Shown one piece after another: positions 10,564 through 53,298 of a stretch of DNA of 59,429 bases. Both the position numbers and the translations under genes were made by a program. Each line of letters starts with the position of its first letter. Position 1 is the first letter of the stretch. The DNA lies in the NCBI GenBank assembly GCA_035545675.1, contig DASZYA010000029.1:1-59429 (forward strand), read 5' to 3'. Origin of the DNA: Patescibacteria group bacterium. GTDB taxonomy: Bacteria; Patescibacteriota; Microgenomatia; Levybacterales; GWA1-39-11. Under the pieces are notes generated by a model. The model saw nothing but the letters and a program-made list of their open reading frames with translations, was not told the origin of the DNA and searched no databases.

Positions 10564-11976
10564 TTATGTTTTTGTTCCTCTAAGGAAAACTGCTTGCCAG
10601 GGTTTATAGACAGAAACAAAAGTATCGTTAATAATTTCTTTACCATCTCTTGTTACGGTTCTTGTAAATACAGATTTTGCTCCAGGAGCTGCAAAATCAA
10701 CCTGTTTAATTGTTCCGGCAGGTAGTGTTGGATCATCCTGATAAACATCTGGTGGGGCGGGTGCTACATTAGAGATTACCGGCTGGCTTATGGAAACTTT
10801 TCTGCCATCACTTTTTCCATAAATCGTGAAGGTAAGACTTAAATTATCTGTATCTGCTAGAGCCTGAATAAATATGTAGTGTCCTGTGTCATTTTTAAAT
10901 TTAAAGTCTACAGTAGGTACGTATGTTGTTGCATCGAGTCCTGGAGGAGCATCTTGCTCATAATATCCTACGCGGTATGCATGTGCATGACGTTCTGTTA
11001 TGGGAAGGCCAGCATTTAAAACTGCTCGGAAAAGAGTCGTTGAGACCTGACAAACTCCTCCACCATCTCCTAAGACTGTTTTTCCACCAGATATAACATA
11101 GGCTTGTGCATAACCAGTGTAAGCAGAAACATCTCCTAGGGTTTTGTCAAAAGAAAATTCTTCTCCAGGAGCAACTAGTGCTCCGTTAATTTTTGAGGTG
11201 GCAAGGGCTACATTATGAACGCGTCCAGGAATTGAATGATAAAAAGTTGATGTTCCAACTCCGATAGGTTCAACTATTCCCAGATTGTTTGCTTCCTCAG
11301 TTGTGGTATCAGGCTTTATTATTTTTATTGGAATATCAATTGTGTGTATGGTTGGTTTTTGGGCAAGGAGATTGGGAACAATATTTCTCATAGTTTTATT
11401 TAGTGAATTGTAATCAAGTAGTTCCCCGTTGCTAGATTGTTTAAATGCAACTACTTTATTGTTTTGTACATTAAACTCTGCATTAACTGGATCTTTGGCT
11501 ACACTTTTTTCAATTTTCGATAGTTTTGTTTTTAGTACATCTTCGTTGTATGTATATGAAGGTCTTAGAAATGTTCCGTTAAGGTACGAAGATAAAATTA
11601 TGTAAGCATCACTGAGTAAATCTCTTCCTTTACCAAGACTCAGTGATTGATCAATCATAAGGTTTGCGTCATATCCAATTCCCAAATCTTTTGCAGAAGC
11701 CGTTGCTATTTGGTCATTCACTTTGAAAGTGAAAGAATTTTTGGAGATTGAGTTGTTTTTTTCAGTAAACAATTGTTGTATTTGATCTTCTGTTTTTTCT
11801 CCTACATATGTATTGCCAATAAATACCCCGGGTATTACGCGATTTCTATATCTATATTGAAAATAAAACATTACAAAACTTGAAAGAAGTGCGCCGGATA
11901 ATAAAAATCCTACAGCAAACCAATAGAAAGATTTTAAGAAGTAATTTACTGACTCTTTTTTAACTATACGTTTCAT
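10564..11976 (-). CDS. VanW family protein (N-terminal TM)
   Basis: The C-terminal region GGGVCQVSTTLFRAVLNAGLPITERHAHAY is characteristic of the VanW domain. Confidence 0.85.
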   Translation of the reverse strand: MKRIVKKESVNYFLKSFYWFAVGFLLSGALLSSFVMFYFQYRYRNRVIPGVFIGNTYVGEKTEDQIQQLFTEKNNSISKNSFTFKVNDQIATASAKDLGIGYDANLMIDQSLSLGKGRDLLSDAYIILSSYLNGTFLRPSYTYNEDVLKTKLSKIEKSVAKDPVNAEFNVQNNKVVAFKQSSNGELLDYNSLNKTMRNIVPNLLAQKPTIHTIDIPIKIIKPDTTTEEANNLGIVEPIGVGTSTFYHSIPGRVHNVALATSKINGALVAPGEEFSFDKTLGDVSAYTGYAQAYVISGGKTVLGDGGGVCQVSTTLFRAVLNAGLPITERHAHAYRVGYYEQDAPPGLDATTYVPTVDFKFKNDTGHYIFIQALADTDNLSLTFTIYGKSDGRKVSISQPVISNVAPAPPDVYQDDPTLPAGTIKQVDFAAPGAKSVFTRTVTRDGKEIINDTFVSVYKPWQAVFLRGTKT

Positions 11977-12030: not shown

Positions 12031-13419
12031 ATGGACGAAAATATTAACCAACCACCGCAGGAATATAATCCTCAAGCAGATGTGGCCTCAGGCCCGCCAA
12101 TAAAGAAGATAGTAAGTCTTGTTATTGGACTTGTTGTAATAGTATTAATAGCAGTTCTAGTCTTTGTTGTGGTTCTTCCAAAGTTTTCCAAAAAGGAACC
12201 TAAAAATGTAACCTTAAAATACTGGTCAATTTATGAGGATAATGCACCTCTTGAGGCAGCTGCAGCTGACTTTACTAGGAAAAATCCCAACATAAAGATT
12301 GTTATTGAGAATCAAGATATTAAATCTTTAGGAAAATACGCTACAAGACTTGCAACAAGAATAAATCAAGGAACAGGGCCTGATATTTTTAGATTCCATA
12401 ATAGTTGGACGCCAGAATTAAAAGATTATCTTTTGCCTTTGCCGCAAAGCGTTGTTAAAACGCTTCAATTGCAAGATAAATATTACCCTGTTGTAGAAAA
12501 CGATTTAAAAATTAATGGTGCTTGGTATGGAGTTCCAACTCATTTTGATACTCTTGCGCTTTTTGTTAACACAGAAATTTTTAATAAAGCTGGAATTAAT
12601 AATTATCCAACCACGTGGGATGATGTAATTGCAACGGCAAGGCAACTTACGGTTAAGGACCCGGATGGTAAAATAATAACCTCAGGTGCTTCTCTTGGTA
12701 CTTTTGATAATGTTGCTCATGCTCCTGATATCGTATCTCTGCTTATGGCTCAAAATGGAGCAAATCTAAAAGATCTAGGAGGAAAAACCAGGCAAAATAC
12801 AATTGATGCTTTGGATTTTTATACATCTTTTGCAAAAGGAGATACTGCTGTTTGGGATAATACTCTTGAGAACTCAAAGCTTGCTTTTGCGAAAGGAAAT
12901 GTTGCTATGTATATAGGTTATTCTTGGGATATTTTTGAGATGAAAAATATAAATCCAAATTTACAGTTTGCAGTAGTTCCTGTACCTAAATTACCTGGTA
13001 GGTCAATGACCGTAGCAAGCTATTGGGTAGATGGGGTATCTTCTAAAACTAAATATCCGGAAGAGGCTTTTAAATTCTTAAACTACATAGCGTCAACTGA
13101 GGTTATGCAAACTATATATGCTCAGGAGGCAAAAACTAGAGGGTTTGGTGAGCTGTATCCAAGAAGTGATATGGCAGGCCAGCTAAAGTCTAATACTCTA
13201 ATTTATCCATTTGTTCAACAAGGTAATGAAGCCGTGTCAACAATGTTTTCATCTGATACTTACGATGCTGCTATGATAGATGCACTCAACCAGTATTTAG
13301 GAAACGCTGTAAATTCTATAGTGGACGACAGTTCGTCACCGGATAGTGCAGTTGACACTCTAGTAAAAGGAATTACGGAAGTTACAACCAAATATGAAAG
13401 CTCAGGACAAAGTAAATAA
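12031..13419 (+). CDS. Extracellular solute-binding protein (ABC family 1), membrane anchored
   Basis: N-terminal TM, then SBP_bac_1-like features (GTGPDIFRFHNSW, YGVPTHFDTLALFVN). No permease or ATPase gene is adjacent. Confidence 0.75.
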   Translation: MDENINQPPQEYNPQADVASGPPIKKIVSLVIGLVVIVLIAVLVFVVVLPKFSKKEPKNVTLKYWSIYEDNAPLEAAAADFTRKNPNIKIVIENQDIKSLGKYATRLATRINQGTGPDIFRFHNSWTPELKDYLLPLPQSVVKTLQLQDKYYPVVENDLKINGAWYGVPTHFDTLALFVNTEIFNKAGINNYPTTWDDVIATARQLTVKDPDGKIITSGASLGTFDNVAHAPDIVSLLMAQNGANLKDLGGKTRQNTIDALDFYTSFAKGDTAVWDNTLENSKLAFAKGNVAMYIGYSWDIFEMKNINPNLQFAVVPVPKLPGRSMTVASYWVDGVSSKTKYPEEAFKFLNYIASTEVMQTIYAQEAKTRGFGELYPRSDMAGQLKSNTLIYPFVQQGNEAVSTMFSSDTYDAAMIDALNQYLGNAVNSIVDDSSSPDSAVDTLVKGITEVTTKYESSGQSK

Positions 13420-14422: not shown

Positions 14423-14905
14423 ATGGATAATAACAACAAGAAAAAAGTATTTGTAACAAAAGAAGGTCTCGAAGAATTAAAGAGAGAACTTCAGGATTTA
14501 AATGACGTAAAAAGACCACAAGTTTTGGATCGTGTTTCTCAGGCACGTTCAATGGGTGATCTTTCTGAAAACTCAGAATACACGGCAGCTCGTGAGGAGT
14601 TATCTTTGATTGACGGTAGAATTGAAGAGCTCTCAGATATTATTAAGCACGCAGATCTTATTGAAGAAACCCACACAAAGGGATCAAAATCCACAATCCA
14701 ACTTGGATCAATTATTGCTGTATCAATCAATGGTAAAAAAGAGGAATTTTCATTGGTTGGAGAATGGGAAGCAGATCCAAAGAATAAAAAAATCTCACAT
14801 GAATCACCACTTGGAAAAGCTCTTATGGGCAAAGCAATTGGTGAGAAAGTAGAAGTAGAGGCACCTGCTGGTAAGGTAGTCTATACGGTAGTTGGAATTA
14901 ACTAG
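14423..14905 (+). CDS. greA: Transcription elongation factor GreA
   Basis: N-terminal coiled coil (LEELKRELQDL...GDLSENSEYTAAREE) and C-terminal FKBP-like domain. Confidence 0.92.
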   Translation: MDNNNKKKVFVTKEGLEELKRELQDLNDVKRPQVLDRVSQARSMGDLSENSEYTAAREELSLIDGRIEELSDIIKHADLIEETHTKGSKSTIQLGSIIAVSINGKKEEFSLVGEWEADPKNKKISHESPLGKALMGKAIGEKVEVEAPAGKVVYTVVGIN

Positions 14906-14981: not shown

Positions 14982-17231
14982 ATGTTCTGGGCAGATCGAG
15001 TAGCAAAAGAAATAATTGATTCAGGAAAACACGAGCCATATTGGGTAGATGACATGTTTACTCCCTCTGGTTTTGCTCACGTGGGTTCATTAAGGGGTCC
15101 ATTGGTTCACGACATGGTTTATAGGGGTCTTGTTAAGGCAGGCCAAAAATCTAAATGGACATACATCATGAACGATTTTGATGTTATTGATGGTTTACCT
15201 CAGGAGTTAGAAAAAGATTTCAGCCAATATATGGGGGTTGTTTTAAGATTGGTTCCATCTCCGGAAAAAGGATTTGATAATTTTGCCGATTATTTTGCAA
15301 AAGACTTTCAGAAAGTATTAAGAGAGCTCGGTGTTGAGGCAGAATTTTTATCTTCTTTTGATATGTATAAGGCTGGAAAGTTTAATGATGTAATAAGACT
15401 TGCTTTAGATAATTCGGAGAAGATCCTTGATATTTACCAAAGGGTGTCAGGAAGTAAAAAAAGAGAGGCTGGTTGGCTTCCATTGCAAGTTATTTGTGAG
15501 AACTGTGGAAAATTAGGAACTACAAGGGTCCATGATTGGGATGGGGAAACAGTTGCTTATACATGTGAGAAGGCTATGGTTAAATGGGCAGAAGGATGCG
15601 GTCATACCGGAAGAATAAGTCCATTTGATGGTAATGGTAAACTCCCTTGGAAAGTGGATTGGCCAGCTCACTGGAAAGTGTTAGGAATAACAATAGAAGG
15701 AGCAGGAAAAGATCATTCTTCAGCCGGAGGTTCACGTGATATAGCAAGGGAACTCTGTAAAGAAGTTTTTGACTATCCAGATCCATTTAATATTCCATAC
15801 GAATTCTTCTTAATAGGTGGAAAGAAAATGTCTTCTTCAAAAGGTCTTGGTTTAAAAGGTAGAGATTTAACTAAACTTTTACCTCCAGAGGTTGGAAGAT
15901 TTTTATTTACTAGAACTGATTATAAAAAGGCAATTGAATTTGATCCAATGGGTACTATGGCTATCCCAATGCTTTTTGACGAATATCAAAAAGCCGCTGA
16001 GTCATATTTCTCAAAGACAGGAGATGATTTAGCTCGTGCATTTGAGTACTCCCACATAGGAGAGATTATGAAACCACCAAGTGTTCGTTTTTCTGTTTTG
16101 GCCCAATGGATACAGATGCCAAATATGGAAAATGAGATTAAAAAAGCGGGGGCAGAGTCGTGGGCAGATTATGCAAGAATTTGGATTGAGCAATTTGCTC
16201 CAGAATCTGAAAAGTTTCTAGTTCAGGATAATCTTCCCGATTCAGCCAGGAGCCTTTCAGATAAACAGAAAGAATATCTACAAAAAATAGTAGATTTGTT
16301 ACCCGTAAACGACGTTGAGGAATTCCAAACCAGAATTTATGAGATAGCAAGAGATCTAGATATTACCCCTAAGGAATCTTTTGGAGCAATATACTCTGTC
16401 TTAATTGGTAAAGATCATGGTCCAAAAGCTGCTTGGTTTATTTCATCTTTGGATCCTGAATTCATCAAGAAAAGATTTAAAGAGGCTTATGAAGCAGAGT
16501 ATGATAACAAAGTCCAAGATGCTAATTTGACTCGCTTTGATAATTCAAACATTTTTAGTATTGATAAAGAACTTGGTCAAAAATATCCATCAATTTCTGT
16601 AGGAATTGCAGTTATTAAAGGAGTAAATATTAAAAAAACAGATGAAAGACTTGAAAAAGAAAAAGAGGAGTTGCTAAAGACTCTTCAGAGTCTAACAACA
16701 GAACAGCTTGGGGAATATGAAGAAGTAAAAGACTATAGAAAGCTTTATAAAGAGATGGGTGTTGATTGGCATTCAAGGCGCCCGAGTCCTGAGGCGCTTC
16801 TCAGAAGAATAGCAACTAAAAAAGGTCTTTATACAGTAAATACATGTGTTGATGCGTACAATTTAGTAGTAATGAAAAATAGAATATCTGTTGGGGCTTT
16901 TGATTATGACAGCATAGCCTTTCCAACAGTAATTCGTTTTGCAAAAGAAGGAGAAAAAATATTATTACTCGGTGATCAAGAAGCGACTCCCTATACAGAA
17001 AAAGAAATTGCTTATTTTGATGAGAAGGGTGGGTACAATATGGACTTTAATTATAGAGACTCACAAAGAACAGCAGTCCAGCTTGATACTAAAAATATTC
17101 TTCTAAATGTTGATGGGATTTTTGGAATTAGTCCAGAAAAAGTGGAGGAAGTATTAAGACAAGCTTGTGACAAAATTATTGAATACTGTGGTGGAGAATT
17201 GTCTGAATTTGGTGTGGTAACTGCTTCTTAA
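14982..17231 (+). CDS. lysK: Class I lysyl-tRNA synthetase fused to a C-terminal B3/4 (PheT-like, COG3382-type) domain
   Basis: HIGH-type FAHVGSLRG and KMSKS-type KMSSSKG in the first ~520 aa. The last ~220 aa has RRPSPEALLRRI, VNTCVDAYNLV, GAFDYD and FNYRDSQRT, as in stand-alone B3/4 proteins. Confidence 0.85.
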   Translation: MFWADRVAKEIIDSGKHEPYWVDDMFTPSGFAHVGSLRGPLVHDMVYRGLVKAGQKSKWTYIMNDFDVIDGLPQELEKDFSQYMGVVLRLVPSPEKGFDNFADYFAKDFQKVLRELGVEAEFLSSFDMYKAGKFNDVIRLALDNSEKILDIYQRVSGSKKREAGWLPLQVICENCGKLGTTRVHDWDGETVAYTCEKAMVKWAEGCGHTGRISPFDGNGKLPWKVDWPAHWKVLGITIEGAGKDHSSAGGSRDIARELCKEVFDYPDPFNIPYEFFLIGGKKMSSSKGLGLKGRDLTKLLPPEVGRFLFTRTDYKKAIEFDPMGTMAIPMLFDEYQKAAESYFSKTGDDLARAFEYSHIGEIMKPPSVRFSVLAQWIQMPNMENEIKKAGAESWADYARIWIEQFAPESEKFLVQDNLPDSARSLSDKQKEYLQKIVDLLPVNDVEEFQTRIYEIARDLDITPKESFGAIYSVLIGKDHGPKAAWFISSLDPEFIKKRFKEAYEAEYDNKVQDANLTRFDNSNIFSIDKELGQKYPSISVGIAVIKGVNIKKTDERLEKEKEELLKTLQSLTTEQLGEYEEVKDYRKLYKEMGVDWHSRRPSPEALLRRIATKKGLYTVNTCVDAYNLVVMKNRISVGAFDYDSIAFPTVIRFAKEGEKILLLGDQEATPYTEKEIAYFDEKGGYNMDFNYRDSQRTAVQLDTKNILLNVDGIFGISPEKVEEVLRQACDKIIEYCGGELSEFGVVTAS

Positions 17232-17725
17232 AAAATAGAGTTAATTTTTTCCGCTGTTTTTTCTGCGGATAAGTTTGTGTTATCAATCTTCTCATCATAG
17301 TTTTCAAATTTACTTTGTTCTTCGTGCAGTGAAATGAGTCTCTCTTCTTGTAGATTGTAGCTCCTATTACTATTTCTTTTTTTAACTTCATCAAGTGTTG
17401 GAAAAAGTAAAACTATTTTTGGTTTAAATTCTTTTAAACCGTCTTTGTAAATCCTGCTTGTTTCTTTTGTTACTACATCAAGAATTACACAGTCAAATCC
17501 CTCTTCTATAAAATTCTTTGCTAGTCCTACTGCGTTTTTAGCTCCAAGTCTGGCTTGTTTTTGACCGGGCTCTCCATACCAAGGTGCAATATGGGGTTTT
17601 ATTGCCATGTGTCTTACGTCATCTACGTCAATAACTGCACATTTATGGCGGAGTTGTGCGAGTATATGACCAACTGTATTTTTACCTGCTCCCGCAGGTC
17701 CCGTTAGAATTATTATTTTTCCCAT
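17228..17725 (-). CDS. P-loop kinase-like ATPase (AAA_33/zeta-toxin-like fold)
   Basis: Walker A GPAGAGKNT near the N-terminus; 165 aa. Confidence 0.55.
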   Translation of the reverse strand: MGKIIILTGPAGAGKNTVGHILAQLRHKCAVIDVDDVRHMAIKPHIAPWYGEPGQKQARLGAKNAVGLAKNFIEEGFDCVILDVVTKETSRIYKDGLKEFKPKIVLLFPTLDEVKKRNSNRSYNLQEERLISLHEEQSKFENYDEKIDNTNLSAEKTAEKINSIF

Positions 17726-19383: not shown

Positions 19384-19415
19384 AACTCGTTAACTCTTTA
19401 ACGCGTTAATAAAAA
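19384..19415 (+). repeat. Octamer array AACTCGTT AACTCTTT AACGCGTT AATAAAAA in the serS 5' region
   Basis: Period 8, x4, ending 1 nt before ATG 19417. TATAAT at 19369-19374 lies upstream. Confidence 0.6.
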
Positions 19416-26882: not shown

Positions 26883-27779
26883 ATGGCAAAAGATACTGCT
26901 CTCTATCAAAATCTTCGTGATAAATGGTCTACAAAGCATAAAGAGCTTCAAAAATCTTTGTGGGAGAAGCATGGAAATATAATTGATGATTTTGTAACTG
27001 GCACTCGTAATTTTGCAATAGGTTCAGTTTCAGCGCTTATGTTGCTTTCAAGTCCAGTAGCAAACAATATGCTTCCACCGTCTACTGCGATAACGGTTCA
27101 GGAAGAACATTTACCAGTTAGTAAAAATGTATTTTTGATCAATGATTTATCAAATATTCTTCCCCAAGAGGTAAGACCACTAACAACAGATGAAGAAAGT
27201 AGCGTCTCTGCCGTTTTAACGCGTGATTTTGGGGTGCCAATAAGTGCAGAGCTAGATGGAATAAGACTTAATAGGAGTTATGGTTATATAGGAGCAGAAC
27301 AGCATCTTGCTCGTTATCCAGGAGATACAATGGCAACACATTTTAGTACGCCAAGTGGTCCTACACCGCCTGAAGAAATACAAAAAGCTTATTCATCTGG
27401 TATGGCACCTGGTCTTGGTGGATGGGGATATTTTGCCCCTTCTGCTACTCAGATGACCCAAGAAGATTCTGATCGCGAGAAATACTATATTGCAGTACAA
27501 AGTTTTCTAGCCCCTGGTTTTGCAGATCACACAGGTGAATATATTAAATTTTTTAAATTTAGAAAAATGATCCTTGTTAATCCACAAAATGGAAAAGCAA
27601 TAGTCGTAGTAATTGGAGATGCAGGACCAGCTGAGTGGACGGGAAAAAGTCTTGGAGGAAGTCCAGAGGTTATGAAGTATCTTGAGCGTGTGGATGGGAA
27701 AGCACGCGGCGCGGTTCTCTATTATTTCATTGATGACCCTGATAATAAAATACCTTTGGGACCAATAGATATTAAATAG
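26883..27779 (+). CDS. Membrane-anchored hypothetical protein with a possible RlpA-like DPBB domain
   Basis: ILVNPQNGKAIVVVIGDAGPAEWTGKSLGGSPEVMKYL parallels the RlpA pattern V.N..NG..v.V.v.DrGP.....iDLS..A...L. Confidence 0.35.
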   Translation: MAKDTALYQNLRDKWSTKHKELQKSLWEKHGNIIDDFVTGTRNFAIGSVSALMLLSSPVANNMLPPSTAITVQEEHLPVSKNVFLINDLSNILPQEVRPLTTDEESSVSAVLTRDFGVPISAELDGIRLNRSYGYIGAEQHLARYPGDTMATHFSTPSGPTPPEEIQKAYSSGMAPGLGGWGYFAPSATQMTQEDSDREKYYIAVQSFLAPGFADHTGEYIKFFKFRKMILVNPQNGKAIVVVIGDAGPAEWTGKSLGGSPEVMKYLERVDGKARGAVLYYFIDDPDNKIPLGPIDIK

Positions 27780-27861
27780 TTAAAGAGTTGCGGGTTAAAG
27801 GGTTAAAGAGTTATTATGAACTCGCTAGCCCGTTAACGCTTTAACTCGTTAATAAAATATT
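27780..27861 (+). repeat. Octamer array spacer: (TTAAAGAG)n followed by its inverted form (AACTCGTT)n, giving a long imperfect hairpin
   Basis: Units are TTAAAGAG, TTGCGGG, TTAAAGGG, TTAAAGAG, then AACTCGCT, AGCCCGTT, AACGCTTT, AACTCGTT, AATAAAAT. Confidence 0.65.
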
Positions 27862-35576: not shown

Positions 35577-36581
35577 ATGAATGACTTAATTGAGAGAGCA
35601 AAGGTTCTTGTTGAAAGATTAGATATTGTAGATAAGAAAAAAAAGATAGAAATATTGGAGGCAGAATCTGCAAATCCAGATTTTTGGAAGGATACAAACG
35701 CTGCAACGCGCAAGATGAAGGAGCTTGCCGCGCTTCAGAAAATAGTAGATGATGGGCAAAAATTAAGTGAATATATAGAATCAAATACTACAACAGGACT
35801 TGAGACTCTTCTCTCTGATATGGAGAAATATCTCTATTTGTCAGGTCCATATGACAATAAAAATGCAATTATGACAATTCACGCAGGCCAAGGGGGAAGT
35901 GACGCTATGGATTGGGCTGCAATGCTTGAAAGGATGTATATGAGATTTTTTGAGAAAAAAGATTGGAGCTACGAAATTGTAGATGAAGCTTCCGGAGAAG
36001 AGGCTGGAATTAAAAGCGCAGTTTTAGCAGTAGAAGGTGAGTTCGCCTATGGGTATTTAAAAGGCGAGATTGGGACGCATCGTTTAGTTAGGCTATCTCC
36101 GTTTAATGCCAATAATCTTCGTCAAACATCATTTGCGTTAGTTGAGGTTCTTCCTCAAATTGAGGATGCTGATGTAGATATAAAAGAAGACGATCTTGAA
36201 TGGGAATTTTATAGAGCCGGAGGACACGGAGGGCAGAATGTAAACAAAGTTTCAACTGCAGTAAGACTAAAACACAAACCAACTGGAATTGTTGTTTCTT
36301 GTCAGACTGAACGCTTTCAGGCGCAAAATAGAGAATATGCGTTAAAGCTTCTCAAAGCAAAGCTTTGGGCTCACGAAGAAGAAAAGAGAAGCGCTGAAGA
36401 GAAAGAACTAAAAGGAGAATATAAGCCGGCTTCTTGGGGAAATCAAATCCGTTCATATGTTTTACACCCATACCAGATGGTCAAAGATTTAAGAACAGGT
36501 GTTGAAACTAGCCAAACAGAAGCAGTTTTAGGGGGCGATATAGACGTATTTATTGACGCAGAACTTAAAACTAGTAGTTAG
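35577..36581 (+). CDS. prfB: Peptide chain release factor 2 (uninterrupted ORF)
   Basis: SPF (RLSPFNA) and GGQ (GGHGGQNVN). No in-frame TGA or CTTTGAC site near codon 25. Confidence 0.93.
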
Positions 36582-36604
36582 GTACTAGGGAATAGGGATT
36601 AGGT
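36572..36604 (+). repeat. (TAG-N4)x5 heptamer array spanning the prfB stop codon
   Basis: TAG at 36572, 36579 (stop), 36586, 36593 and 36600. The 18-mer 36586-36603 is identical to 42601-42618. Confidence 0.75.
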
Positions 36605-36612
36605 AAAAAATA

Positions 36613-37074
36613 ATGAGAAAAGTAATAGAGGGAGAGAAACATTTTACAGTATCTGCCTGGATACTTACAAAAACAAAGCCTGCTAAAGTCCTTCTTATTC
36701 TTCATAAGAAGTTTAACAAATGGATTCAACCAGGAGGTCACATTGAAGAATTTGAAAATCCAATTGATGCAGTGATTCGTGAGGCAAAAGAGGAGTCGGG
36801 AATCGATATCTCATTCTTAGCAAATGATATTGTGATTGGAAATGAAGTTAAATTTTTGCCAAACTCGGTTTTCTTTATGGAGCAAACAATTCCTGAACAT
36901 AAAGGTCAGCCAAGTCACTTCCACCTAGATTTTAGTTATGTTGTAAAAGTTGATGAGCAAGAGATAAATCAGAGTGAATTAAATAATGATCAAGTGGGGT
37001 GGTTTACAAAAGAAGAAGCTCTCAAATTAGATACCCATCTTGATACAAAAACTATCCTAAAAAAGATAATGTGA
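36613..37074 (+). CDS. NUDIX hydrolase
   Basis: Nudix box GGHIEEFENPIDAVIREAKEESGI. Confidence 0.88.
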   Translation: MRKVIEGEKHFTVSAWILTKTKPAKVLLILHKKFNKWIQPGGHIEEFENPIDAVIREAKEESGIDISFLANDIVIGNEVKFLPNSVFFMEQTIPEHKGQPSHFHLDFSYVVKVDEQEINQSELNNDQVGWFTKEEALKLDTHLDTKTILKKIM

Positions 37075-37651: not shown

Positions 37652-38479
37652 ATGATTGTGTTTCGCGATGTAACTAAGCAATATGGTGGTAGTGAGCCTG
37701 TCCTTGATAACGTAAATTTTGAAATAGACAAGGGGGCTTTTGTGTATCTTATTGGCCCTACAGGGTCAGGTAAAACCACGATTTTTCGCCTCATTATTCG
37801 CGATCTTCTTCCTTCAAGCGGCGGTATAAATATTGGTGAATGGGATCTTGTTAATCTTCCAAAATCTATAATCCCAACTCTAAGACGTAAGGTTGGAGTA
37901 ATCTTTCAGGACCTCAAGCTTTTGATGGACAGGACAGTCGTAGAAAATGTAATGCTTCCACTTCAATTCTCTGGTACAAAAGAGGAAGAGGCAAGGAAAA
38001 AAGCAGAAGAAGTTTTGATAAGCGTAGGACTAGAGGGAAAAATTGAAAAGTTCCCAATGCAGCTATCCGGGGGAGAACGCCAAAGAGTTGCTATTGCCCG
38101 CGCTTTGGTTTTTGATCCAGAAGTATTATTAGCAGATGAACCTACTGGAAATCTTGATACACAAACATCATTTCAGATATTGGATTTACTCAAAAGTATT
38201 AATAAGCGTGGAACAACTATTTTCATGGCAACTCACAATGATAGGATAATTGAGAAAACTAGTGATCGCGTAATAGCAATTGAACATGGTAAGCTAATTC
38301 ATGATAAGAAAGCTGCAAAAAAAGACAGCACAGAAGAAAAAGACGATAAAAAAACTAAAGAAGCACACGAAACAAAGACAGCGGGTAACCCGCCAGCTGG
38401 CGAAGATGATGACAAAAAGAAGGGTTCAATAAAATTAGAATCTTTGGCAGCAAAGGGGGATAAAGCCAATAGCAAATAG
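37652..38479 (+). CDS. ftsE: Cell-division ABC ATPase FtsE with a charged C-terminal tail
   Basis: GPTGSGKTT, LSGGERQR, LLADEPTGNLD and a K/D/E-rich tail of about 55 aa. Confidence 0.9.
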   Translation: MIVFRDVTKQYGGSEPVLDNVNFEIDKGAFVYLIGPTGSGKTTIFRLIIRDLLPSSGGINIGEWDLVNLPKSIIPTLRRKVGVIFQDLKLLMDRTVVENVMLPLQFSGTKEEEARKKAEEVLISVGLEGKIEKFPMQLSGGERQRVAIARALVFDPEVLLADEPTGNLDTQTSFQILDLLKSINKRGTTIFMATHNDRIIEKTSDRVIAIEHGKLIHDKKAAKKDSTEEKDDKKTKEAHETKTAGNPPAGEDDDKKKGSIKLESLAAKGDKANSK

Positions 38480-38534
38480 CGCGTAGCGGATAGAAAACTA
38501 TCAGCTAAAAGCTATAAGCCATAAGCTAAATAAT
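38470..38534 (+). repeat. Heptamer array filling the ftsE-ftsX spacer
   Basis: TAG at 38470, 38477 (stop), 38484 and 38491, then AGCTAAA AGCTATA AGCCATA AGCTAAA at 38503-38530. A single 7-nt phase holds throughout. Confidence 0.7.
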
Positions 38535-39398
38535 ATGCATTTTGATACAGTAGCAAAATATATTAGAAGGTCACCTTATCAATCGCTTTCAGCAGCGCTA
38601 ATTATGAGCCTTACCTTCTTTACTATTACGATCTTTGGAATTCTCACAATATTCTCAATAAGATTTATTGCTTATTTTGAGTCACGTCCTCAGCTCACAG
38701 TGTTTTTCAAAGATACTGCAACAAAAGCAGACATTGACTCTATGCAGAAGAGTCTTGAGAATACAGGAAAAACTTCTTCCGTGACTTATGTTTCAAAAGA
38801 ACAGGCCCTAAAAATTTATAAACAGCAAAATAAGAGTGATCCTTTACTTTTGGATCTTGTTACCTCAGATATTCTACCTGCATCTATTGAAATACAGGCT
38901 TTACAGGCAGAAGATTTATCCTCTCTTGCTAGTGTTGTTCAAAAGTCCCCTTTAGTAGAAGAAGTTGTGTTTCAGAAAGATATTGTTGATACTCTAATCT
39001 CTTGGACAAATGCTGCAAGAAGAGTTGGGATTGCCATAATTGCTATTCTCACAACGGTTTCAGTATTAGTCATAATTACAATCATAGGAATAAGAATTAC
39101 GGTAAGGCGCGAGGAGATAGAAATAATGAAACTAATTGGTGCTTCTAACTGGTTTATTAGGGCGCCATTCCTTATGGAAGGAGCCTTCTATGGGCTAGTT
39201 GGATCCTTGGTGGGAGGGTTATCTGCGATTGGAATATTTTATTATTTCCAGCCGGCAATAGAAGTATTTTTGAAAGGTATAGCAATTTTCCCTCTTAATC
39301 CATTGATTTTACTTGAGTTGTTACTCATTGAGATTATCATTGCTTGTAGTTTGGGAGCTTTTGCGAGTTACATGGCAGTTCTTCGCTACCTAAAATAG
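38535..39398 (+). CDS. ftsX: Cell-division permease FtsX
   Basis: Four TM helices, an extracytoplasmic domain between TM1 and TM2, adjacent to ftsE. Confidence 0.88.
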   Translation: MHFDTVAKYIRRSPYQSLSAALIMSLTFFTITIFGILTIFSIRFIAYFESRPQLTVFFKDTATKADIDSMQKSLENTGKTSSVTYVSKEQALKIYKQQNKSDPLLLDLVTSDILPASIEIQALQAEDLSSLASVVQKSPLVEEVVFQKDIVDTLISWTNAARRVGIAIIAILTTVSVLVIITIIGIRITVRREEIEIMKLIGASNWFIRAPFLMEGAFYGLVGSLVGGLSAIGIFYYFQPAIEVFLKGIAIFPLNPLILLELLLIEIIIACSLGAFASYMAVLRYLK

Positions 39399-39410: not shown

Positions 39411-39438
39411 TAGTTAATAGTTTATAGTTTATGGTTAA
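39411..39438 (+). repeat. Heptamer array TAGTTAA TAGTTTA TAGTTTA TGGTTAA overlapping the start codon
   Basis: The 15-mer AATAGTTTATAGTTT (39416-39430) recurs at 53277-53291. Confidence 0.7.
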
Positions 39439-40716: not shown

Positions 40717-40737
40717 TAGATATTAGATATTAATGAA
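40717..40737 (+). repeat. Heptamers TAGATAT TAGATAT TAATGAA directly before ATG 40737
   Basis: Seen in sequence. Confidence 0.55.
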
Positions 40738-41603
40738 TGATTAAGAAGTTATTATTAATATTATTTTTCTCTTTATCCTTTTTTGTATTGGTTCCATCAA
40801 AAGTCTTTGCGGTCACGGTCTCTGTAACTAATTCTCCTTCTACCATTGGTTCTGATTCATTCAAGGTTACAGTTTCTGTAACTGGTGCATCAGCAGGAAC
40901 AAATTACTTAAGAATTGATTTATATAAGGACGGAACTACAAATTACTTTGGTGAAACAAATGGTGCGAATGGTTGGTATAGCGGTAGTGACGGTAAGCAG
41001 TATTTTCCTATAACTATCCAGTCTGGGACTGCCTGGAGCGGAGACGTAGAGGCAAGAATTGGATCGCCAAGTCAATCAAATTATGATGGACAGGGATCAT
41101 ACAAACTACGAATAAGAAGATATACGGATTCTGGGAATCAAGGCGGAGAAGATGCAAATCTTAGTGCAGTCTCCGTGAATATTTCTGTTCCTACTCTTAC
41201 TCCTACGCCCACTATTACTCCAACTCCTACCAATGCGCCTACCCCCACAAAAACTCCCACCCCAACTCCAACCAGCTCTCCAACTGCAACATCTACCCCA
41301 ATCAAAACTCCCACTCCCACTGTTAAAGCGAGCGCAACATCTACACCTAGCCCAACAGAAGAGGAGACAGAAGGATCAAGCAACGGATCAGATTTATCAC
41401 TTGCTTCTGATTCACAGGATAAGGTTTTTGGTGATGGGACTATCTCACCTACACCAAAAACAGAGGTTTTGGGGGCTAGTACTAGTATTGGAAATCCTTT
41501 TCTTTTTGTTGCTCTTGGTTTGATATTTATAGTTGTTTGTGGCATACTTGCCTACTTCCAGTTGGGAGACAAGATTTTTATATGGAAGAAGAAAGATTCG
41601 TAA
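40737..41603 (+). CDS. Secreted protein with PT-rich linker and C-terminal TM anchor
   Basis: Signal peptide, globular domain, the run TPTPTITPTPTNAPTPTKTPTPTPTSSPT, and a C-terminal hydrophobic helix plus a basic tail. Confidence 0.6.
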   Translation: MIKKLLLILFFSLSFFVLVPSKVFAVTVSVTNSPSTIGSDSFKVTVSVTGASAGTNYLRIDLYKDGTTNYFGETNGANGWYSGSDGKQYFPITIQSGTAWSGDVEARIGSPSQSNYDGQGSYKLRIRRYTDSGNQGGEDANLSAVSVNISVPTLTPTPTITPTPTNAPTPTKTPTPTPTSSPTATSTPIKTPTPTVKASATSTPSPTEEETEGSSNGSDLSLASDSQDKVFGDGTISPTPKTEVLGASTSIGNPFLFVALGLIFIVVCGILAYFQLGDKIFIWKKKDS

Positions 41604-42025
41604 GTGAAAATGCAGCTTCAACACAAAAACTTGGGGAAGAGTTGGCCCAAAGTCTAAAGCCGGGAGACATAATAAGTCTTACTGGCAATTTAGGTGCTGG
41701 AAAAACAACTTTTGTTCAGGGACTAGCAAAAGGACTTGGAATAGAAGAAAGGATAATATCTCCGACCTTCGTTTTAGTTAGACAACATAATATTCATCCT
41801 AAGACCCAAGATCTAGGATCTAACATCAAAACTTTATATCATATAGATCTTTATAGACTTGAAGGAGAAGAAAGTATTAAAAATATAGGACTAGAAGAGT
41901 TTCTAAATGATCCTAATGCCGTATCGGTTATTGAATGGGCAAAAAAGCATCCCGGTCTTAGGCCAAATATAGAAATAGAAATTGAGAACGAAGATGATAA
42001 GAGAGTTATAAAAATAAAAAAATGA
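41582..42025 (+). CDS. tsaE: tRNA t6A biosynthesis ATPase TsaE
   Basis: GNLGAGKTT, SPTFVLV and HIDLYRL. I prefer ATG 41582. Confidence 0.88.
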   Translation: MEEERFVSENAASTQKLGEELAQSLKPGDIISLTGNLGAGKTTFVQGLAKGLGIEERIISPTFVLVRQHNIHPKTQDLGSNIKTLYHIDLYRLEGEESIKNIGLEEFLNDPNAVSVIEWAKKHPGLRPNIEIEIENEDDKRVIKIKK

Positions 42026-42603
42026 ATAAAGGCTTAAATGAATCCGTTAAGGTTCTGAAGAAGGGGGGAGTAATAATATATCCTACTGATACTGCTTTTG
42101 GGATAGGTTGTAAGGTGGATGAAGAACAGGTTATCAATAAGTTATTTAAGCTAAGAAGAAGGCCAAAAGAAAAAGCAGTTCCAATATTGGTTTCCTCAAT
42201 AAAAATGGCAGAAGATTATGCAGAGATTAATCCCAAAGCAAAAGCCCTCATGGAAAAATATTGGCCAGGGGGGTTAACGATAATTGTTAAGGCAAAGAAG
42301 GATAAGATTCCGTTTCTCGCTCGTGGTGGAGGAGAAACAGTGGGTTTGAGAATGCCAAATCATAAAACAACGCTTGCCTTAATTAGAAAAATTAATACGC
42401 CGCTTATTGGTTGTTCGGCAAATTTCGCAGGTGAGGCAACACCTTACAAATTTTTAGATCTTAACAAAGATTTAATTAAAAAGGTGGATTATGTTTTGAT
42501 GGGTAGAACTTCAGCAAAGTTAGCTTCAACAGTTGTTGATACCACAGGAGACAGGCTTAATATCGTAAGAGAAGGAGCAGTCAAATTAGGGACTAGGAAT
42601 TAG
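42022..42603 (+). CDS. tsaC: L-threonylcarbamoyladenylate synthase (TsaC/YrdC/Sua5 family)
   Basis: IIYPTDTAFGIG, RRRPKEKAVPIL and GLRMPNH. ATGA overlap with tsaE. Confidence 0.88.
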   Translation: MNKGLNESVKVLKKGGVIIYPTDTAFGIGCKVDEEQVINKLFKLRRRPKEKAVPILVSSIKMAEDYAEINPKAKALMEKYWPGGLTIIVKAKKDKIPFLARGGGETVGLRMPNHKTTLALIRKINTPLIGCSANFAGEATPYKFLDLNKDLIKKVDYVLMGRTSAKLASTVVDTTGDRLNIVREGAVKLGTRN

Positions 42604-42621
42604 GGAATAGGGATTAGGAAC
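42587..42621 (+). repeat. (TAG-N4)x5 heptamer array spanning the tsaC stop codon
   Basis: TAGGGAC TAGGAAT TAGGGAA TAGGGAT TAGGAAC, with TAG at 42587, 42594, 42601 (stop), 42608 and 42615. ATG 42629 is in the same 7-nt phase. Confidence 0.75.
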
Positions 42622-42628
42622 AGAAATT

Positions 42629-42940
42629 ATGAATATATTAAAAATAGATACAAGAAATAATTCGAATATAAAAGTCACCTTATTAAAAGGTGAGGAAAAA
42701 TTCGAAAGGGAGTCAGAGGCTGTAACCGCTAAGGCGCAGGTCGCGCTACCTTTAATAAGCGAGTTGCTTAAAGAGTCAGATCTTAAGATTCAAGATATAG
42801 ATGAGATTGAGGTGGAAAAAACTGATGGATCACTCACTGGATTAAGGGTTGGAGTTGCAATTGCAAATGCTTTGTCCTTTGGGGCTCAAATTAAGATAAA
42901 CGGTAAGGAATTGGGCGAAATAGAATTGCCAGAATATTAA
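42629..42940 (+). CDS. tsaB: Truncated TsaB-like protein (N-terminal ASKHA lobe only, 103 aa)
   Basis: MNILKIDTRNN... and TDGSLTGLRVGVAIANAL correspond to TsaB MKILAIDTS... and GPGSFTGLRIG. The protein has roughly half the usual length. Confidence 0.55.
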   Translation: MNILKIDTRNNSNIKVTLLKGEEKFERESEAVTAKAQVALPLISELLKESDLKIQDIDEIEVEKTDGSLTGLRVGVAIANALSFGAQIKINGKELGEIELPEY

Positions 42941-46841: not shown

Positions 46842-48136
46842 AATTAACCTTTATAGGACATGGATATGTTGGATTAGTATCGGCGGCGATCTTTGCAGAT
46901 CTCGGAAATACAGTTACCGTTATTGGTCATACCCCTCAAACAGTAGAAAACCTCAATCGTGGAATAGTTCATATTTATGAACCTGGACTAGATGAAATAG
47001 TAAAGAGAAATGTAGAAGCCAAAAGACTTATTTTTACTCTAGATTATGATTCAGTAAAATCTTCTGATCTTATTTTTACAGCAGTTGGTACACCTCCAAA
47101 AGAGAGCGGAGAAGCAGATCTTTCTGTAGTTTTGGAAGTTGCAGAAAAGATTGGTAAAAACTTATCTGGATACACAGTGATTGTTACTAAGAGTACAGTT
47201 CCGATAGGAACAAACAAAAAGATACGTGCAATTGTAGAAAAAGTAAAAGATGAAAAAGCGGAGTTTGATATGGCATCTTGTCCTGAGTTTCTACGCCAGG
47301 GAACAGCTATTTCTGACACGCTAAATCCAGACAGGATTGTAATTGGAGCAGAATCAAAAAGAGCACAGGAATTGTTGATAGAGCTTCACCGCCCGCTCCA
47401 GGAGAATACAAATGCCCCATATGTTTTAACAAATCTTGAGACAGCAGAGATGATAAAGTATGCAGCAAATGCATTTTTAGCAACCAAGATCTCTTTTGCA
47501 AATTCCATAGCAGAGTTATCAGAAAGTTGTGGCGCAGACGCGTTAGCAGCGCTTGCAGGTATTGGTTTTGACCATAGGATTGGTAAGGACTTTTTATCTC
47601 CGGGAGCAGGGTATGGTGGAAGTTGTTTTCCAAAAGATGTAAAAGCATTGATCTCTATTGCTAAAGATTATGATTATGATTTTAAACTTCTAAAAGAAGT
47701 GGAGAATGTAAACCATGAGGCAAAGATGGCTATAGTCAAAAAGGCGGAGGAGATGCTTGGAGATGTATCAGGAAAGCAAATTGGAATTTTGGGTCTTGCC
47801 TTTAAACCTAACACGGATGATATGAGGTTTGCCCCATCTATTGAAATAATTGATGCGCTTGTTAAAAAAGGAGCTGTTATAAAAGCATATGACCCAGAAT
47901 CAATGAAAAAAGCAAAAACTATAATTACTGGAATTGATTTTAAAGATAATGCTCACGATGTTATTAAAGATATAGATTTACTCATTGTATTAACCGAATG
48001 GAATGAATTCAAAGAAATGGATCTAGAAAATTTGAAAAAAGAAATGAAAGCACCAAGAGTTTTGGACGGACGTAATATTTGGGAGCCTCAAGAAATGAAA
48101 GATCTAGGATTTAACTATGTTGGTGTAGGGCGATAA
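46838..48136 (+). CDS. ugd: UDP-glucose 6-dehydrogenase
   Basis: IGHGYVGLV and the catalytic GGSCFPKD. Confidence 0.92.
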   Translation: MKLTFIGHGYVGLVSAAIFADLGNTVTVIGHTPQTVENLNRGIVHIYEPGLDEIVKRNVEAKRLIFTLDYDSVKSSDLIFTAVGTPPKESGEADLSVVLEVAEKIGKNLSGYTVIVTKSTVPIGTNKKIRAIVEKVKDEKAEFDMASCPEFLRQGTAISDTLNPDRIVIGAESKRAQELLIELHRPLQENTNAPYVLTNLETAEMIKYAANAFLATKISFANSIAELSESCGADALAALAGIGFDHRIGKDFLSPGAGYGGSCFPKDVKALISIAKDYDYDFKLLKEVENVNHEAKMAIVKKAEEMLGDVSGKQIGILGLAFKPNTDDMRFAPSIEIIDALVKKGAVIKAYDPESMKKAKTIITGIDFKDNAHDVIKDIDLLIVLTEWNEFKEMDLENLKKEMKAPRVLDGRNIWEPQEMKDLGFNYVGVGR

Positions 48137-48137
48137 G

Positions 48138-48217
48138 TTAAAGAGTTAAAGTGTTAACGAGTTGAAGAGTTAAAAACTCATAACCAAAAAACCCGTTAAC
48201 TCGTTAATAATATTATT
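48138..48217 (+). repeat. Octamer array spacer, exactly ten 8-nt units between the ugd stop and the next ATG
   Basis: TTAAAGAG TTAAAGTG TTAACGAG TTGAAGAG TTAAAAAC ... CGTTAACT CGTTAATA ATATTATT. TTAACGAGTT (48154-48163) is the exact complement of AACTCGTTAA (48198-48207). Confidence 0.7.
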
Positions 48218-52316: not shown

Positions 52317-53267
52317 ATGGGGGTTTATGTGGTTGCAGGTGGTGCGGGTTTTATAGGGTGTCACCTAGTAGAGAGGTTACTTGATCGTGGAGATCAGGTG
52401 GTAGCAATAGATAATCTTATTACAGGCGCTGAGGATAATATCTCACATCTTTATGGAAATCCTAACTTTACATTTATTAATCAAGATATTATCAAAGGGT
52501 TACCAAGAATTGATGCAGAAGTTCTGGGAATTTTTCACCTTGCCTCTCCAGCTTCCCCAAATGCAAAAAGTCCTAAGAGCTATATTGCCTTCCCTCTTGA
52601 GACGATGCTTGTTAATTCCCTCGGAACCTTACATCTTCTAGATCTAGCCTTGCACAAAGGAGCTAAATTTTTGTTTGCATCAACATCAGAAGTATACGGA
52701 GATCCGGATGTTTCTCCTCAAAAAGAAACATATTTTGGAAATGTGAATCCTGTTGGCGTAAGATCCGTTTATGATGAAGGAAAAAGATTTGGAGAGGCAC
52801 TTACGGCAAGCTACGTACGTGAATCAAATGTTAACGCAGTGATAATTAGAATTTTTAACACCTATGGAGATAGAATGCAGGTGGATGACGGAAGAGTAGT
52901 TTCAAATTTTATAAACCAAGCATTAATGGGAGATGATATGACAATTTATGGCAAGGGGGATCAGACAAGAAGTTTTTGTTTTGTTGACGATTTGGTAACC
53001 GGTCTAGTGTCTGCAATGGATCGCGATACTCGTGGTGAGGTTATAAACCTTGGTAATCCAAAAGAATTTTCAATCAAAGAGTTGGCAGAGAAGGTGAAGC
53101 ATGAAACCGGTTCAAAATCAAAAATAATTCATGAAGAGTTGCCGGAAGACGATCCTAAGCAGAGAAAGCCAGATATCACAAAAGCAAAAAAACTTTTAGG
53201 CTTCGATCCAAAAATAGATCTTGATGAAGGGTTGAAAAAAACAATAGAATATTTTAAAAGTTTATAG
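52317..53267 (+). CDS. UDP-glucuronate decarboxylase (UDP-xylose synthase-like SDR)
   Basis: GGAGFIGCHL, STSEVYGDP and YDEGKRFGE. Confidence 0.88.
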   Translation: MGVYVVAGGAGFIGCHLVERLLDRGDQVVAIDNLITGAEDNISHLYGNPNFTFINQDIIKGLPRIDAEVLGIFHLASPASPNAKSPKSYIAFPLETMLVNSLGTLHLLDLALHKGAKFLFASTSEVYGDPDVSPQKETYFGNVNPVGVRSVYDEGKRFGEALTASYVRESNVNAVIIRIFNTYGDRMQVDDGRVVSNFINQALMGDDMTIYGKGDQTRSFCFVDDLVTGLVSAMDRDTRGEVINLGNPKEFSIKELAEKVKHETGSKSKIIHEELPEDDPKQRKPDITKAKKLLGFDPKIDLDEGLKKTIEYFKSL

Positions 53268-53298
53268 TTAATTGTAAATAGTTTATAGTTTTAAGTAT
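53265..53298 (+). repeat. Heptamer array TAGTTAA TTGTAAA TAGTTTA TAGTTTT AAGTATA from stop to start
   Basis: Shares the 15-mer AATAGTTTATAGTTT with 39416-39430. Confidence 0.7.

Follow-up and report, generated by a model that had tools for sequence, protein, structure and literature searches.

The question raised by this locus is what a tandem array of TAG-N4 heptamers is and how it came to lie across the stop codon of a release factor gene. The array was found in contig DASZYA010000029.1 (assembly GCA_035545675.1) of a Patescibacteria bacterium in the order Levybacterales, at the end of a prfB-like gene. The contig was analyzed over its whole length of 59,429 nt, which is called the window hereafter, and is contig C29 of a 1.05-Mb draft genome with 36% GC and 46 contigs. 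Gene coordinates are from our own greedy open reading frame (ORF) caller, which identified 1090 ORFs covering 89% of the genome and whose start codons are approximate. The results described below make it likely that the array belongs to a family of heptamer elements associated with genes of PF05635 (23S_rRNA_IVP/S23p, hereafter IVP genes), of which it would be a solo copy with a single arm. The features at the locus are as follows.

35577..36581, plus strand: prfB-like gene, taken to encode RF2, a class I peptide-chain release factor of 334 amino acid residues (Pfam PCRF, 2.5e-44; RF-1, 8.6e-39)
36572..36606, plus strand: RF2-junction array of five TAG-N4 heptamers, a solo arm that reads TAG and belongs to the TAGGGAW family
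36579..36581, plus strand: RF2 stop codon TAG, which is the second TAG of the array and in register with it
36613..37074, plus strand: NUDIX hydrolase gene downstream of the array (Pfam NUDIX, 1.6e-13)

The Array at the RF2 Stop Codon

The five units of the array are TAGTAGT, TAGGTAC, TAGGGAA, TAGGGAT, and TAGGTAA, whose TAGs start at positions 36572, 36579, 36586, 36593, and 36600, respectively. Re-reading of the window sequence confirmed the five TAGs, their strict 7-nt period and an 18-mer shared with a distant spacer, all of which had been described in a first-pass annotation of this DNA. An additional TAG at position 36575 is out of phase with the array, and unit 1 is either degenerate or perhaps ancestral coding sequence. 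The array begins 10 nt before the end of RF2 (d_stop = -10), and its last TAG is separated from the next ATG by a 10-nt gap (d_start = 10) that holds no ORF, so that no PF05635 ORF lies inside the element here. The RNA of the array is predicted to be unstructured (local fold z = -1.1), and there is no partner arm with which it could form a terminal inverted repeat. Neither a promoter-like nor a terminator-like site was found in the RF2-NUDIX spacer. Given that the locus has neither a partner arm nor an enclosed PF05635 ORF, it is classed as a derivative, not a complete member, of the S23p/IVP hairpin cassette class.

Orthologues of RF2 were identified in 30 relatives. The gene product studied here contains the SPF tripeptide, which was used as a filter and is taken as the mark of RF2. 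The C-terminal residues of RF2 had been proposed to be encoded by the array. However, the K-T-S-S tail of RF2 is similar to the tails of relatives without the array (AST and ESSNT), so the array origin of these residues is uncertain and they need not be derived from it.

The shared 18-mer TAGGGAATAGGGATTAGG is identical at positions 36586-36603 and 42601-42618, the latter in a sister array between tsaC and tsaB. The features at this second locus are as follows.

42022..42603, plus strand: tsaC gene (Sua5/YciO/YrdC), whose stop codon is the third TAG of the sister array, at 42601
42587..42621, plus strand: sister array of five units, TAGGGAC TAGGAAT TAGGGAA TAGGGAT TAGGAAC, which contains the shared 18-mer
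42629..42940, plus strand: short TsaB-like gene that follows the sister array (N-terminal match to the TsaD family in Pfam, 6.3e-11)

The two arrays share 27 of 35 positions. The end of tsaC, comprising the last four codons (G-T-R-N) and the stop, is clearly encoded by the array. In the window TAGGNNNTAGGNNNTAGG has five matches, compared with 0.00 in 100 shuffles. The genome contains three copies of the 18-mer and six of its 14-mer core, so a sharing of the 18-mer by two loci is expected. An assembly or chimera artefact, which had been named as a concern, is excluded because the unique flanking genes at both loci keep their order in relatives. In the relatives G007, G008, and G020, there is no array and the stop codon of tsaC overlaps the start codon of tsaB (ATGA), while other relatives have other arrays or hairpins at this position.

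A Family of Apparently Copied Heptamer Modules

A genome-wide excess at lag 7, which had been suggested as a check, was found. The autocorrelation of bases in intergenic DNA (98.5 kb) gave z scores of 28, 15.7, and 20.8 for lags of 7, 14, and 21, respectively, and that of coding DNA revealed the 3-nt codon period alone. The pattern (TAG-N4)x3 has 223 matches in the genome, compared with about 6 expected. Other TAG spacings had 1 to 21 matches, except for the spacing of 11, which corresponds to a period of 14 or two periods and had 99. With a tolerant array caller, 108 (TAG-N4)n arrays were identified in the genome, and 86 of the 89 strict arrays are outside ORFs. The units fall into several families, namely TAGGGAW/TAGGTTT, TAGCTTA, TAGCGAA, TAGATCT, TAGAAAT, and TAGTTAA.

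The sizes of the arrays are not open-ended. Among the 108 arrays, 21 have three units, 31 have four, 46 have five and six have six, with four longer ones; the mode is therefore five, followed by a steep fall at six. The same fall was found in 204 kb of the relatives' loci, in which 15 arrays have five units and two have six. Moreover, adjacent units are not especially alike. In 29 five-unit arrays of the TAGG family, the similarity of adjacent units was 0.47, compared with 0.465 between arrays, and units at the same position across these arrays were more similar than those at different positions (0 of 500 permutations). Unit 1 of this module is mostly TAGGGAT/C, unit 4 is mostly TAGGGAT and the fifth "unit" is merely a closing TAG. 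Because the units are mosaic and show positional homology across loci, the arrays appear to be copied from a module some 31-35 nt long, with about four full units and a closing TAG, instead of being products of local slippage, of which near-identical adjacent units and open-ended lengths would be the signs. A few long perfect arrays do exist. Two of them, TAGCGAA arrays of 19 and 17 units, are located at contig ends (C1:8-136 and C7:46845-46959). Their location shows that the assembly is interrupted at long heptamer arrays, and C1 and C7 may lie next to each other in the genome.

Heptamer Arrays as Arms of IVP Genes

The Pfam family search identified six PF05635 genes in the genome. Five of the six have inverted repeat arrays in both flanks, each gene with its own type of unit. 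These genes and their arms are as follows.

C20:22016-22381: IVP gene of 121 amino acid residues; arms TAGGGAT TAGGATT TAGGGAA TAGGGAC TAG and complement, the same TAGGGAW units as in the RF2 array
C1:36018-36407: IVP gene; arms of the octamer GTTAACGA/AACTCGTT, which is also present in the window
C26: IVP gene; arms of TAGAnnn units
C1:12293: IVP gene; arms of TAGAAAT
C12: IVP gene; arms of the CAATTGATCAAA type
C11: IVP gene; array (TAGGTCT/TAGTTCT) visible on the 5' side only

The arm of the C20 cassette at C20:21989 is identical to the sister array at 42587 at 31 of 35 positions. When joined by a short loop, the C20 arms fold into a stem with z = -4.85. The octamer arms at C1:36018-36407 indicate that at least one IVP lineage has an 8-nt register and no TAG core. 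Among 1067 genes, the six IVP genes rank 1, 6, 42, 43, 58, and 372 for the energy of pairing between their 5' and 3' flanks. Genes with strongly pairing flanks other than IVP genes include GIY-YIG ORFs and tRNA-flanked genes; they have no heptamer arms and are unrelated.

Similar results were obtained with the relatives. At 29 IVP loci, to which this genome contributed six and the relatives 23, the two arms of the same locus pair with a median of -29.0 kcal/mol, compared with -18.3 kcal/mol for arms of different loci (p = 3e-10). As pairing is stronger within the own locus, the arms co-vary despite widely differing units, whose cores include TAG, CAG, GAG, and others. In addition, the upstream flanks of the 23 relatives' loci show lag-7 periodicity in 65% of cases, compared with 12% of controls (p = 3e-9).

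The six IVPs of this genome share only 21-39% identity. The closest solved structure to the C20 IVP is 2GSC (E = 2.8e-22), an entry with five chains. The C20 IVP also matches the bAvd-like model PF22296 with 1.3e-7, which is below the cut-off of that model. A gene for RNase III is present in the genome. Apart from the TAG core and the register, any recognition of the arrays by the protein would be loose, and a reading of the N4 positions by it is not claimed.

Co-variation of IVP Genes and Arrays Among Genomes

The numbers of arrays and IVP genes were compared in two samples of draft genomes, one of 61 genomes of the same order and one of 119 further Patescibacteria from about 100 genera. The array measure was (TAG-N4)x4 and hence covers arrays with the TAG core only. 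In the 61 relatives, the number of PF05635 genes correlated with that of (TAG-N4)x4 matches (rho = 0.83, kinship ignored). All 15 genomes without IVP genes had two matches or fewer, whereas 38 of the 46 genomes with IVP genes had at least five (Fisher p = 7e-9). Such contrasts were repeated within genera, by G010 in the genus of the species studied here and by other genomes in genera g2, g3, g21, and g26. In the 119 Patescibacteria the correlation was 0.70, also with kinship ignored, and the mean numbers of matches were 0.9, 1.5, 20.8, and 38.2 in genomes with 0, 1, 2-4, and at least 5 IVP genes, respectively.

PF05635 genes occur in 46 of the 61 related genomes and in 79 of 121 genomes across the phylum (about 65%), with up to 17 copies in a genome of 0.8 Mb. 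Of 14 well-known control genomes, only one has PF05635. For an orphan family, such an expansion in reduced genomes is striking.

Turnover at the RF2-NUDIX Junction

Comparison of orthologous spacers, with their lack of arrays counting against a functional array, had been suggested in the first-pass annotation. Four relatives of the same genus (G010, G011, G002, and G008) indeed have no array at the RF2-NUDIX junction, which favours an inserted element over a conserved regulator that is specific to this site. In G010, whose RF2 is 80% identical, and in G011, RF2 ends with TGA, and this stop directly adjoins or overlaps the start of NUDIX. In G005, the closest relative (RF2 91% identical), RF2 ends with TAA, and the spacer of 182 nt behind it holds a different family (TAGCTTA and others). 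The junction of G007 contains TAGATAC-type units and then an extra small DUF3850/ASCH gene, and those of G006 and G001 contain other arrays of four units. In G009, a complete PF05635 gene (121.5 bits) is located exactly between RF2 and NUDIX, with a 5' arm of TAGTTAT TAGGGTC TAGCGTC TAGAAAA and a complementary 3' arm. As shown by G009 and G007, small cassettes have landed at this junction repeatedly.

The stop codon of RF2 varies with the array. Within the genus, it is TAG in 7 of 7 relatives' junctions where an array starts at the stop and TGA or TAA in 4 of 4 array-less ones. No arrays were found at the RF2-NUDIX junction of relatives outside the genus.

Polarity of the Arrays and Hairpin Forms

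The arrays also follow rules of position and orientation. Between co-directional neighbours, sense-TAG arrays begin at a median position of -3 nt relative to where the upstream gene ends, with offsets of -3, -10, and -17, and the stop of the gene is the first, second or third TAG of the array in 20 of 39 cases. The sense-CTA arrays (n = 28) end at a median of 7 nt before the downstream start, 17 of them 4-8 nt before it. Many spacers hold both arms, and among array pairs 21 are TAG-first, compared with four that are CTA-first. Some arrays are located between divergent genes.

The gene-less spacers with two arms fold as periodic stems (z from -2.65 to -3.63), including one in the window.

38470..38534, plus strand: gene-less hairpin spacer, in which the TAG arm at 38470-38493 (TAGCAAA TAGCGCG TAGCGGA TAG) faces the CTA arm at 38498-38528; fold -18.1 kcal/mol, z = -3.63

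Polarity is automatic in such hairpins because a TAG-first hairpin reads alike on both strands. Solo arms have the same polarity, as TAG arms near a stop outnumber the opposite by 24 to 3 and CTA arms near a start by 10 to 6 (p = 0.0012), which is what is expected of hairpins that lost their inner part. Contig C40 carries four near-identical hairpin spacers of about 72 nt between consecutive genes (TAGGGAA TAGGrrT TAGGTTT TAGGGAT TAG ... CTAGGAACTAATAACTAAAAA-ATG), in a context that an ORF in one of the spacers suggests to be a ribosomal-protein operon.

C40, near 10828-11158, 12956-13029, 14459-14532, and 17215-17281: ends of the hairpin spacers, none with a Shine-Dalgarno (SD) sequence ahead of the next start

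A Proposed Origin of the RF2 Array

Our results from this study showed that the arrays are a module family with fixed polarity and hairpin forms, that they are associated with IVP genes both physically and numerically, that they turn over quickly at the RF2-NUDIX junction and that they donate stop codons. The array at RF2 is best explained as a solo arm from this family. The complete element would be a hairpin cassette of the form 5'-(TAG-N4)5 ... (N4-CTA)5-3', which can enclose a small PF05635 gene. Such a hairpin or cassette may have been inserted at the RF2-NUDIX junction in the recent ancestry of the species, with a TAG of the array replacing a TGA or TAA stop. The loop and the CTA arm would have been deleted later, and the TAG arm would have survived since it now carries the stop of RF2. 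In the mRNA, by analogy with the geometry of HutP and TRAP, the unstructured tract of five UAG-N4 units could provide one binding site for an IVP pentamer, with one unit for each subunit. Paired arms would form stems of the kind that RNase III cuts in S23p-bearing rRNA intervening sequences (IVSs).

A more general form of this proposal is put forward tentatively, as a possibility for which the probability is well below even. PF05635 proteins would be ring pentamers whose cognate ligand is the five-unit heptamer array, read with one (U/T)AG-N4 unit per subunit. An IVP gene bracketed by its own inverted sites would then be a self-propagating junction cassette, and the hairpins without a gene and the solo arms would represent copies of this cassette that are non-autonomous or have decayed. 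If this pentamer model is true, it gives a function to an orphan family present in about 65% of the sampled Patescibacteria and an origin to bacterial heptamer repeats that have long been unexplained, including the short tandemly repeated repetitive (STRR), GGGAATC, and TAACTGA repeats. Intergenic heptamer arrays have been catalogued for decades without a mechanism, and in this 1-Mb genome of the Candidate Phyla Radiation (CPR) they meet the uncharacterized PF05635, with array abundance tracking IVP copy number over about 180 genomes. Essential genes (RF2 and TsaC) take stop codons and C-terminal residues from these modules, which also occupy the positions where ribosome-binding sites are expected and, when long, break assemblies.

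Several observations weigh against the association of the RF2 array with IVP genes or against the proposed role of IVP. The RF2 locus has neither an IVP gene nor a complementary arm, so its history as a remnant is one that we infer, and binding of IVP to the arrays, as RNA or as DNA, is suggested by analogy. The IVP gene on C11 ranks only 372nd for flank pairing. Similar IVP proteins have very different arm units (Mantel rho = 0.10, p about 0.04), and the families TAGCTTA, TAGCGAA, and TAGGTTT have no cognate IVP gene in the draft assembly. The long homogeneous TAGCGAA arrays of 17-19 units at contig ends indicate that slippage acts too. Finally, two IVP-less genomes among the 119 Patescibacteria have 10-11 matches, and the correlations across genomes, in which kinship was ignored, could partly reflect general repeat load.

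Alternative Explanations

Plain heptanucleotide microsatellites, generated in situ by replication slippage and with neither a function nor a tie to a protein, would be one account of the arrays. Prokaryotic intergenic DNA is known to be enriched in heptamer simple-sequence repeats (Mrazek and colleagues, as cited by PMC4679880 and PMC4692102), long perfect TAGCGAA arrays exist in this genome and close relatives differ in their arrays. Slippage alone is nevertheless an unlikely source, as sizes peak at five and collapse at six instead of decaying monotonically and the mosaic units have positional homology across loci. Moreover, the arrays obey strict rules of position and orientation at stops and starts, are paired in complementary arms, flank IVP genes and co-track with them across genomes. 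The alternative that the array is a selected translational barrier, which stops ribosomes in all frames after RF2 or tsaC and uncouples the downstream gene, extends a suggestion of the first-pass annotation whose arithmetic is correct: with TAG at a period of 7, three units place a stop in all three frames. Consistent with such a barrier, 20 of the 39 sense arrays supply the stop of the gene, and of the 316 TAG stops, 20 have in-register TAGs at +7 and +14, compared with 2 of the 643 TAA stops. However, CTA arms, which have no sense-strand stops, are nearly as frequent (28 compared with 39), arrays are also found between divergent genes and relatives have an overlapping stop and start at the same junctions. 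In addition, some IVP-flanking arrays of relatives have non-stop cores (CAG and GAG), and there is no evident read-through problem, given that both release-factor paralogues are present and that no suppressor tRNA was found in the genome. A selected barrier is thus improbable, and the all-frame stops are most likely a by-product.

It had also been suggested that the last unit supplies an SD-like AGG(T/A) element, and the array could then provide both this motif and the spacing for re-initiation at the next ATG. The ATG at 36613 has AGGT 9 nt ahead of it and the ATG at 42629 has AGGA about 10 nt ahead, and for five sense arrays the distance from their end to a start is 10-11 nt. SD-like motifs, however, are at background in this genome, being present at 11.2% of called starts (-18..-5), whose calls are approximate, and in 11.2% of random genomic 20-mers. 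Families without AGG (TAGCTTA and TAGTTTA) are located at the same distance, and pyrimidine-rich CTA arms occupy the SD position of many genes. An SD role is improbable. Even less credence can be given to a site for a HutP- or TRAP-type RNA-binding antiterminator or attenuator that controls the downstream gene. HutP recognizes UAG triplets that are 4 nt apart, the geometry of the array, and the RF2 tract is predicted to be single-stranded. Neither protein was identified, with no match to HutP (PF09021) in the genome at E <= 1 and a best genome hit to TRAP (PF02081) of E = 0.12, below the cut-off and inside a 352-residue ORF. TRAP requires a spacing of 2-3 nt between sites, compared with 4 nt here. 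The array lies between two genes and not in a leader, its spacer has neither a terminator-like hairpin nor a promoter, the same arrays are found at about 100 unrelated junctions in both orientations and the orthologous site in congeners has no array. What survives of the HutP suggestion is the idea of a ring protein on periodic UAG, with a different candidate. As a separate observation on the translation signals of this genome, the 3' end of the 16S rRNA, on contig C12, nevertheless has the usual CACCTCCTT.

Comparison With Known Elements

The closest parallel to the solo arm proposed at RF2 and to the cassettes from which it may derive is the IVS of Coxiella burnetii 23S rRNA, which contains an S23p ORF, a terminal stem of 28 bp and tandem GACAGAT heptamers upstream of the ORF (PMC4990558). 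In this IVS, RNase III cuts in the stem, at the first repeat, and the repeat number varies between strains (PMC4990558). S23p of Xanthomonas is a homopentameric toroid (PMC4990558), and PF05635/S23p is still referred to as functionally uncharacterized in recent literature (PMC11270868; PMC4990558). Similar to the Coxiella-type IVS, the C20 cassette has a PF05635 ORF inside terminal inverted repeats that form a long stem, with tandem heptamers directly upstream, in its 5' arm; the RF2 array shares the units of this arm. Different from the IVS, the elements described here are located between protein-coding genes and not in rRNA, number about 100 per 1-Mb genome, have a TAG core and often donate stops, and the RF2 locus has one arm and no ORF.

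Intergenic arrays of GGGAATC in Xanthomonas and of GGGGA(C/T)T in Nostoc have been described (Rehm et al. 2015, PMC4692102). Those arrays lie nearer to the ORF on their 5' side than to the other neighbour, each Xanthomonas genome holds about 70 inverted pairs in convergent orientation and no link to S23p was made (PMC4692102). TAACTGA arrays are found in Beggiatoaceae, Cyanobacteria, and Bacteroidetes, where stops in all frames in the forward orientation limit their overlap with ORF ends (MacGregor 2015, PMC4679880). Similar to these and to the cyanobacterial STRR arrays, to which a likeness had been noted previously and holds, the arrays of this study are short tandem arrays of 7-nt units, over-represented and about 90% intergenic, and a function is unassigned in every case. 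They differ in their TAG core, mosaic units and Patescibacteria (CPR) host, and neither the modal size of five nor an association with PF05635 was reported in PMC4692102 and PMC4679880. Heptamer arrays and the S23p IVS were each already known. In the literature searched, no link between S23p and heptamer arrays beyond the Coxiella IVS was found, and neither the genome-wide association nor the five-unit module nor the abundance in CPR genomes was described.

Other known systems share single traits with the heptamer elements. HutP (UAG-N4) and TRAP (11 G/UAG triplets) also bind periodic UAG on single-stranded RNA, and the equality of repeats and subunits is an analogy proposed here, as is the binding by IVP; the differences are the lack of a homologue, leader or terminator and the dispersal of the arrays at about 100 junctions. 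Similar to repetitive extragenic palindromic (REP) sequences, bacterial interspersed mosaic elements (BIMEs) and elements of the miniature inverted-repeat transposable element (MITE) type, the arrays are dispersed, short, intergenic and hairpin-forming, occur in operons in gene-bearing and gene-less forms and are lineage-specific. Their arms, however, consist of phased 7-nt units instead of a single palindrome, and the associated protein is a four-helix bundle without known catalytic activity. No match to the Y1 transposase (PF01797, RAYT/IS200-605) was found in the genome at E <= 0.1, and an element derived from REP/RAYT or IS200-605 was therefore rejected. Avd of diversity-generating retroelements (DGRs) has been described as a nucleic-acid-interacting pentamer. 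It is also a homologous four-helix bundle (bAvd, PF22296), a homology that was noted in PMC10053308. The family search showed that a reverse transcriptase (PF00078) is absent from this genome. Thus, the IVPs of this genome are not accessory Avd proteins of a DGR, and DGR membership was rejected, as no reverse transcriptase accompanies the Avd-like gene.

Other Arrays in the Window and Minor Observations

In addition to the RF2 array, the sister array and the hairpin spacer, the window contains further TAG arrays.

39411..39430, plus strand: TAGTTWA heptamer array running into the next start codon
40715..40732, plus strand: short TAGATAT array of 2.6 units, just upstream of the ATG at 40737
53265..53291, plus strand: TAGTTWA-type array, which supplies with its first TAG the stop codon for the ORF at 52317..53267 (d_stop = -3, d_start = 10)

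Arrays with a period of 8 (AACTCGTT/TTAAAGAG), with about 3-5 units, are located at 19384-19409, 27772-27852, and 48136-48174. The ORF at 38535-39398 lies between complementary arms, with the CTA arm of 38498-38528 upstream and TAGCTAT... downstream, and ranks 10th of 1067 genes for flank pairing; the arms of neighbouring spacers could therefore pair across a whole gene. Within the ORF at 41537..42025, positions 41799-41822 read TAGATCC TAGATCT TGGGTCT TAG on the minus strand, with CTA on the plus strand, and arrays in the CTA orientation may thus be translated as part of a gene. Finally, two small ORFs of 95 and 78 amino acid residues (C36:1571-1858 and C37:7335-7571) have flanks that pair with -41.8 and -34.4 kcal/mol, respectively, and are not heptamer arrays. 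By eye, these ORFs are GIY-YIG-like and probably represent a different kind of small mobile cassette.

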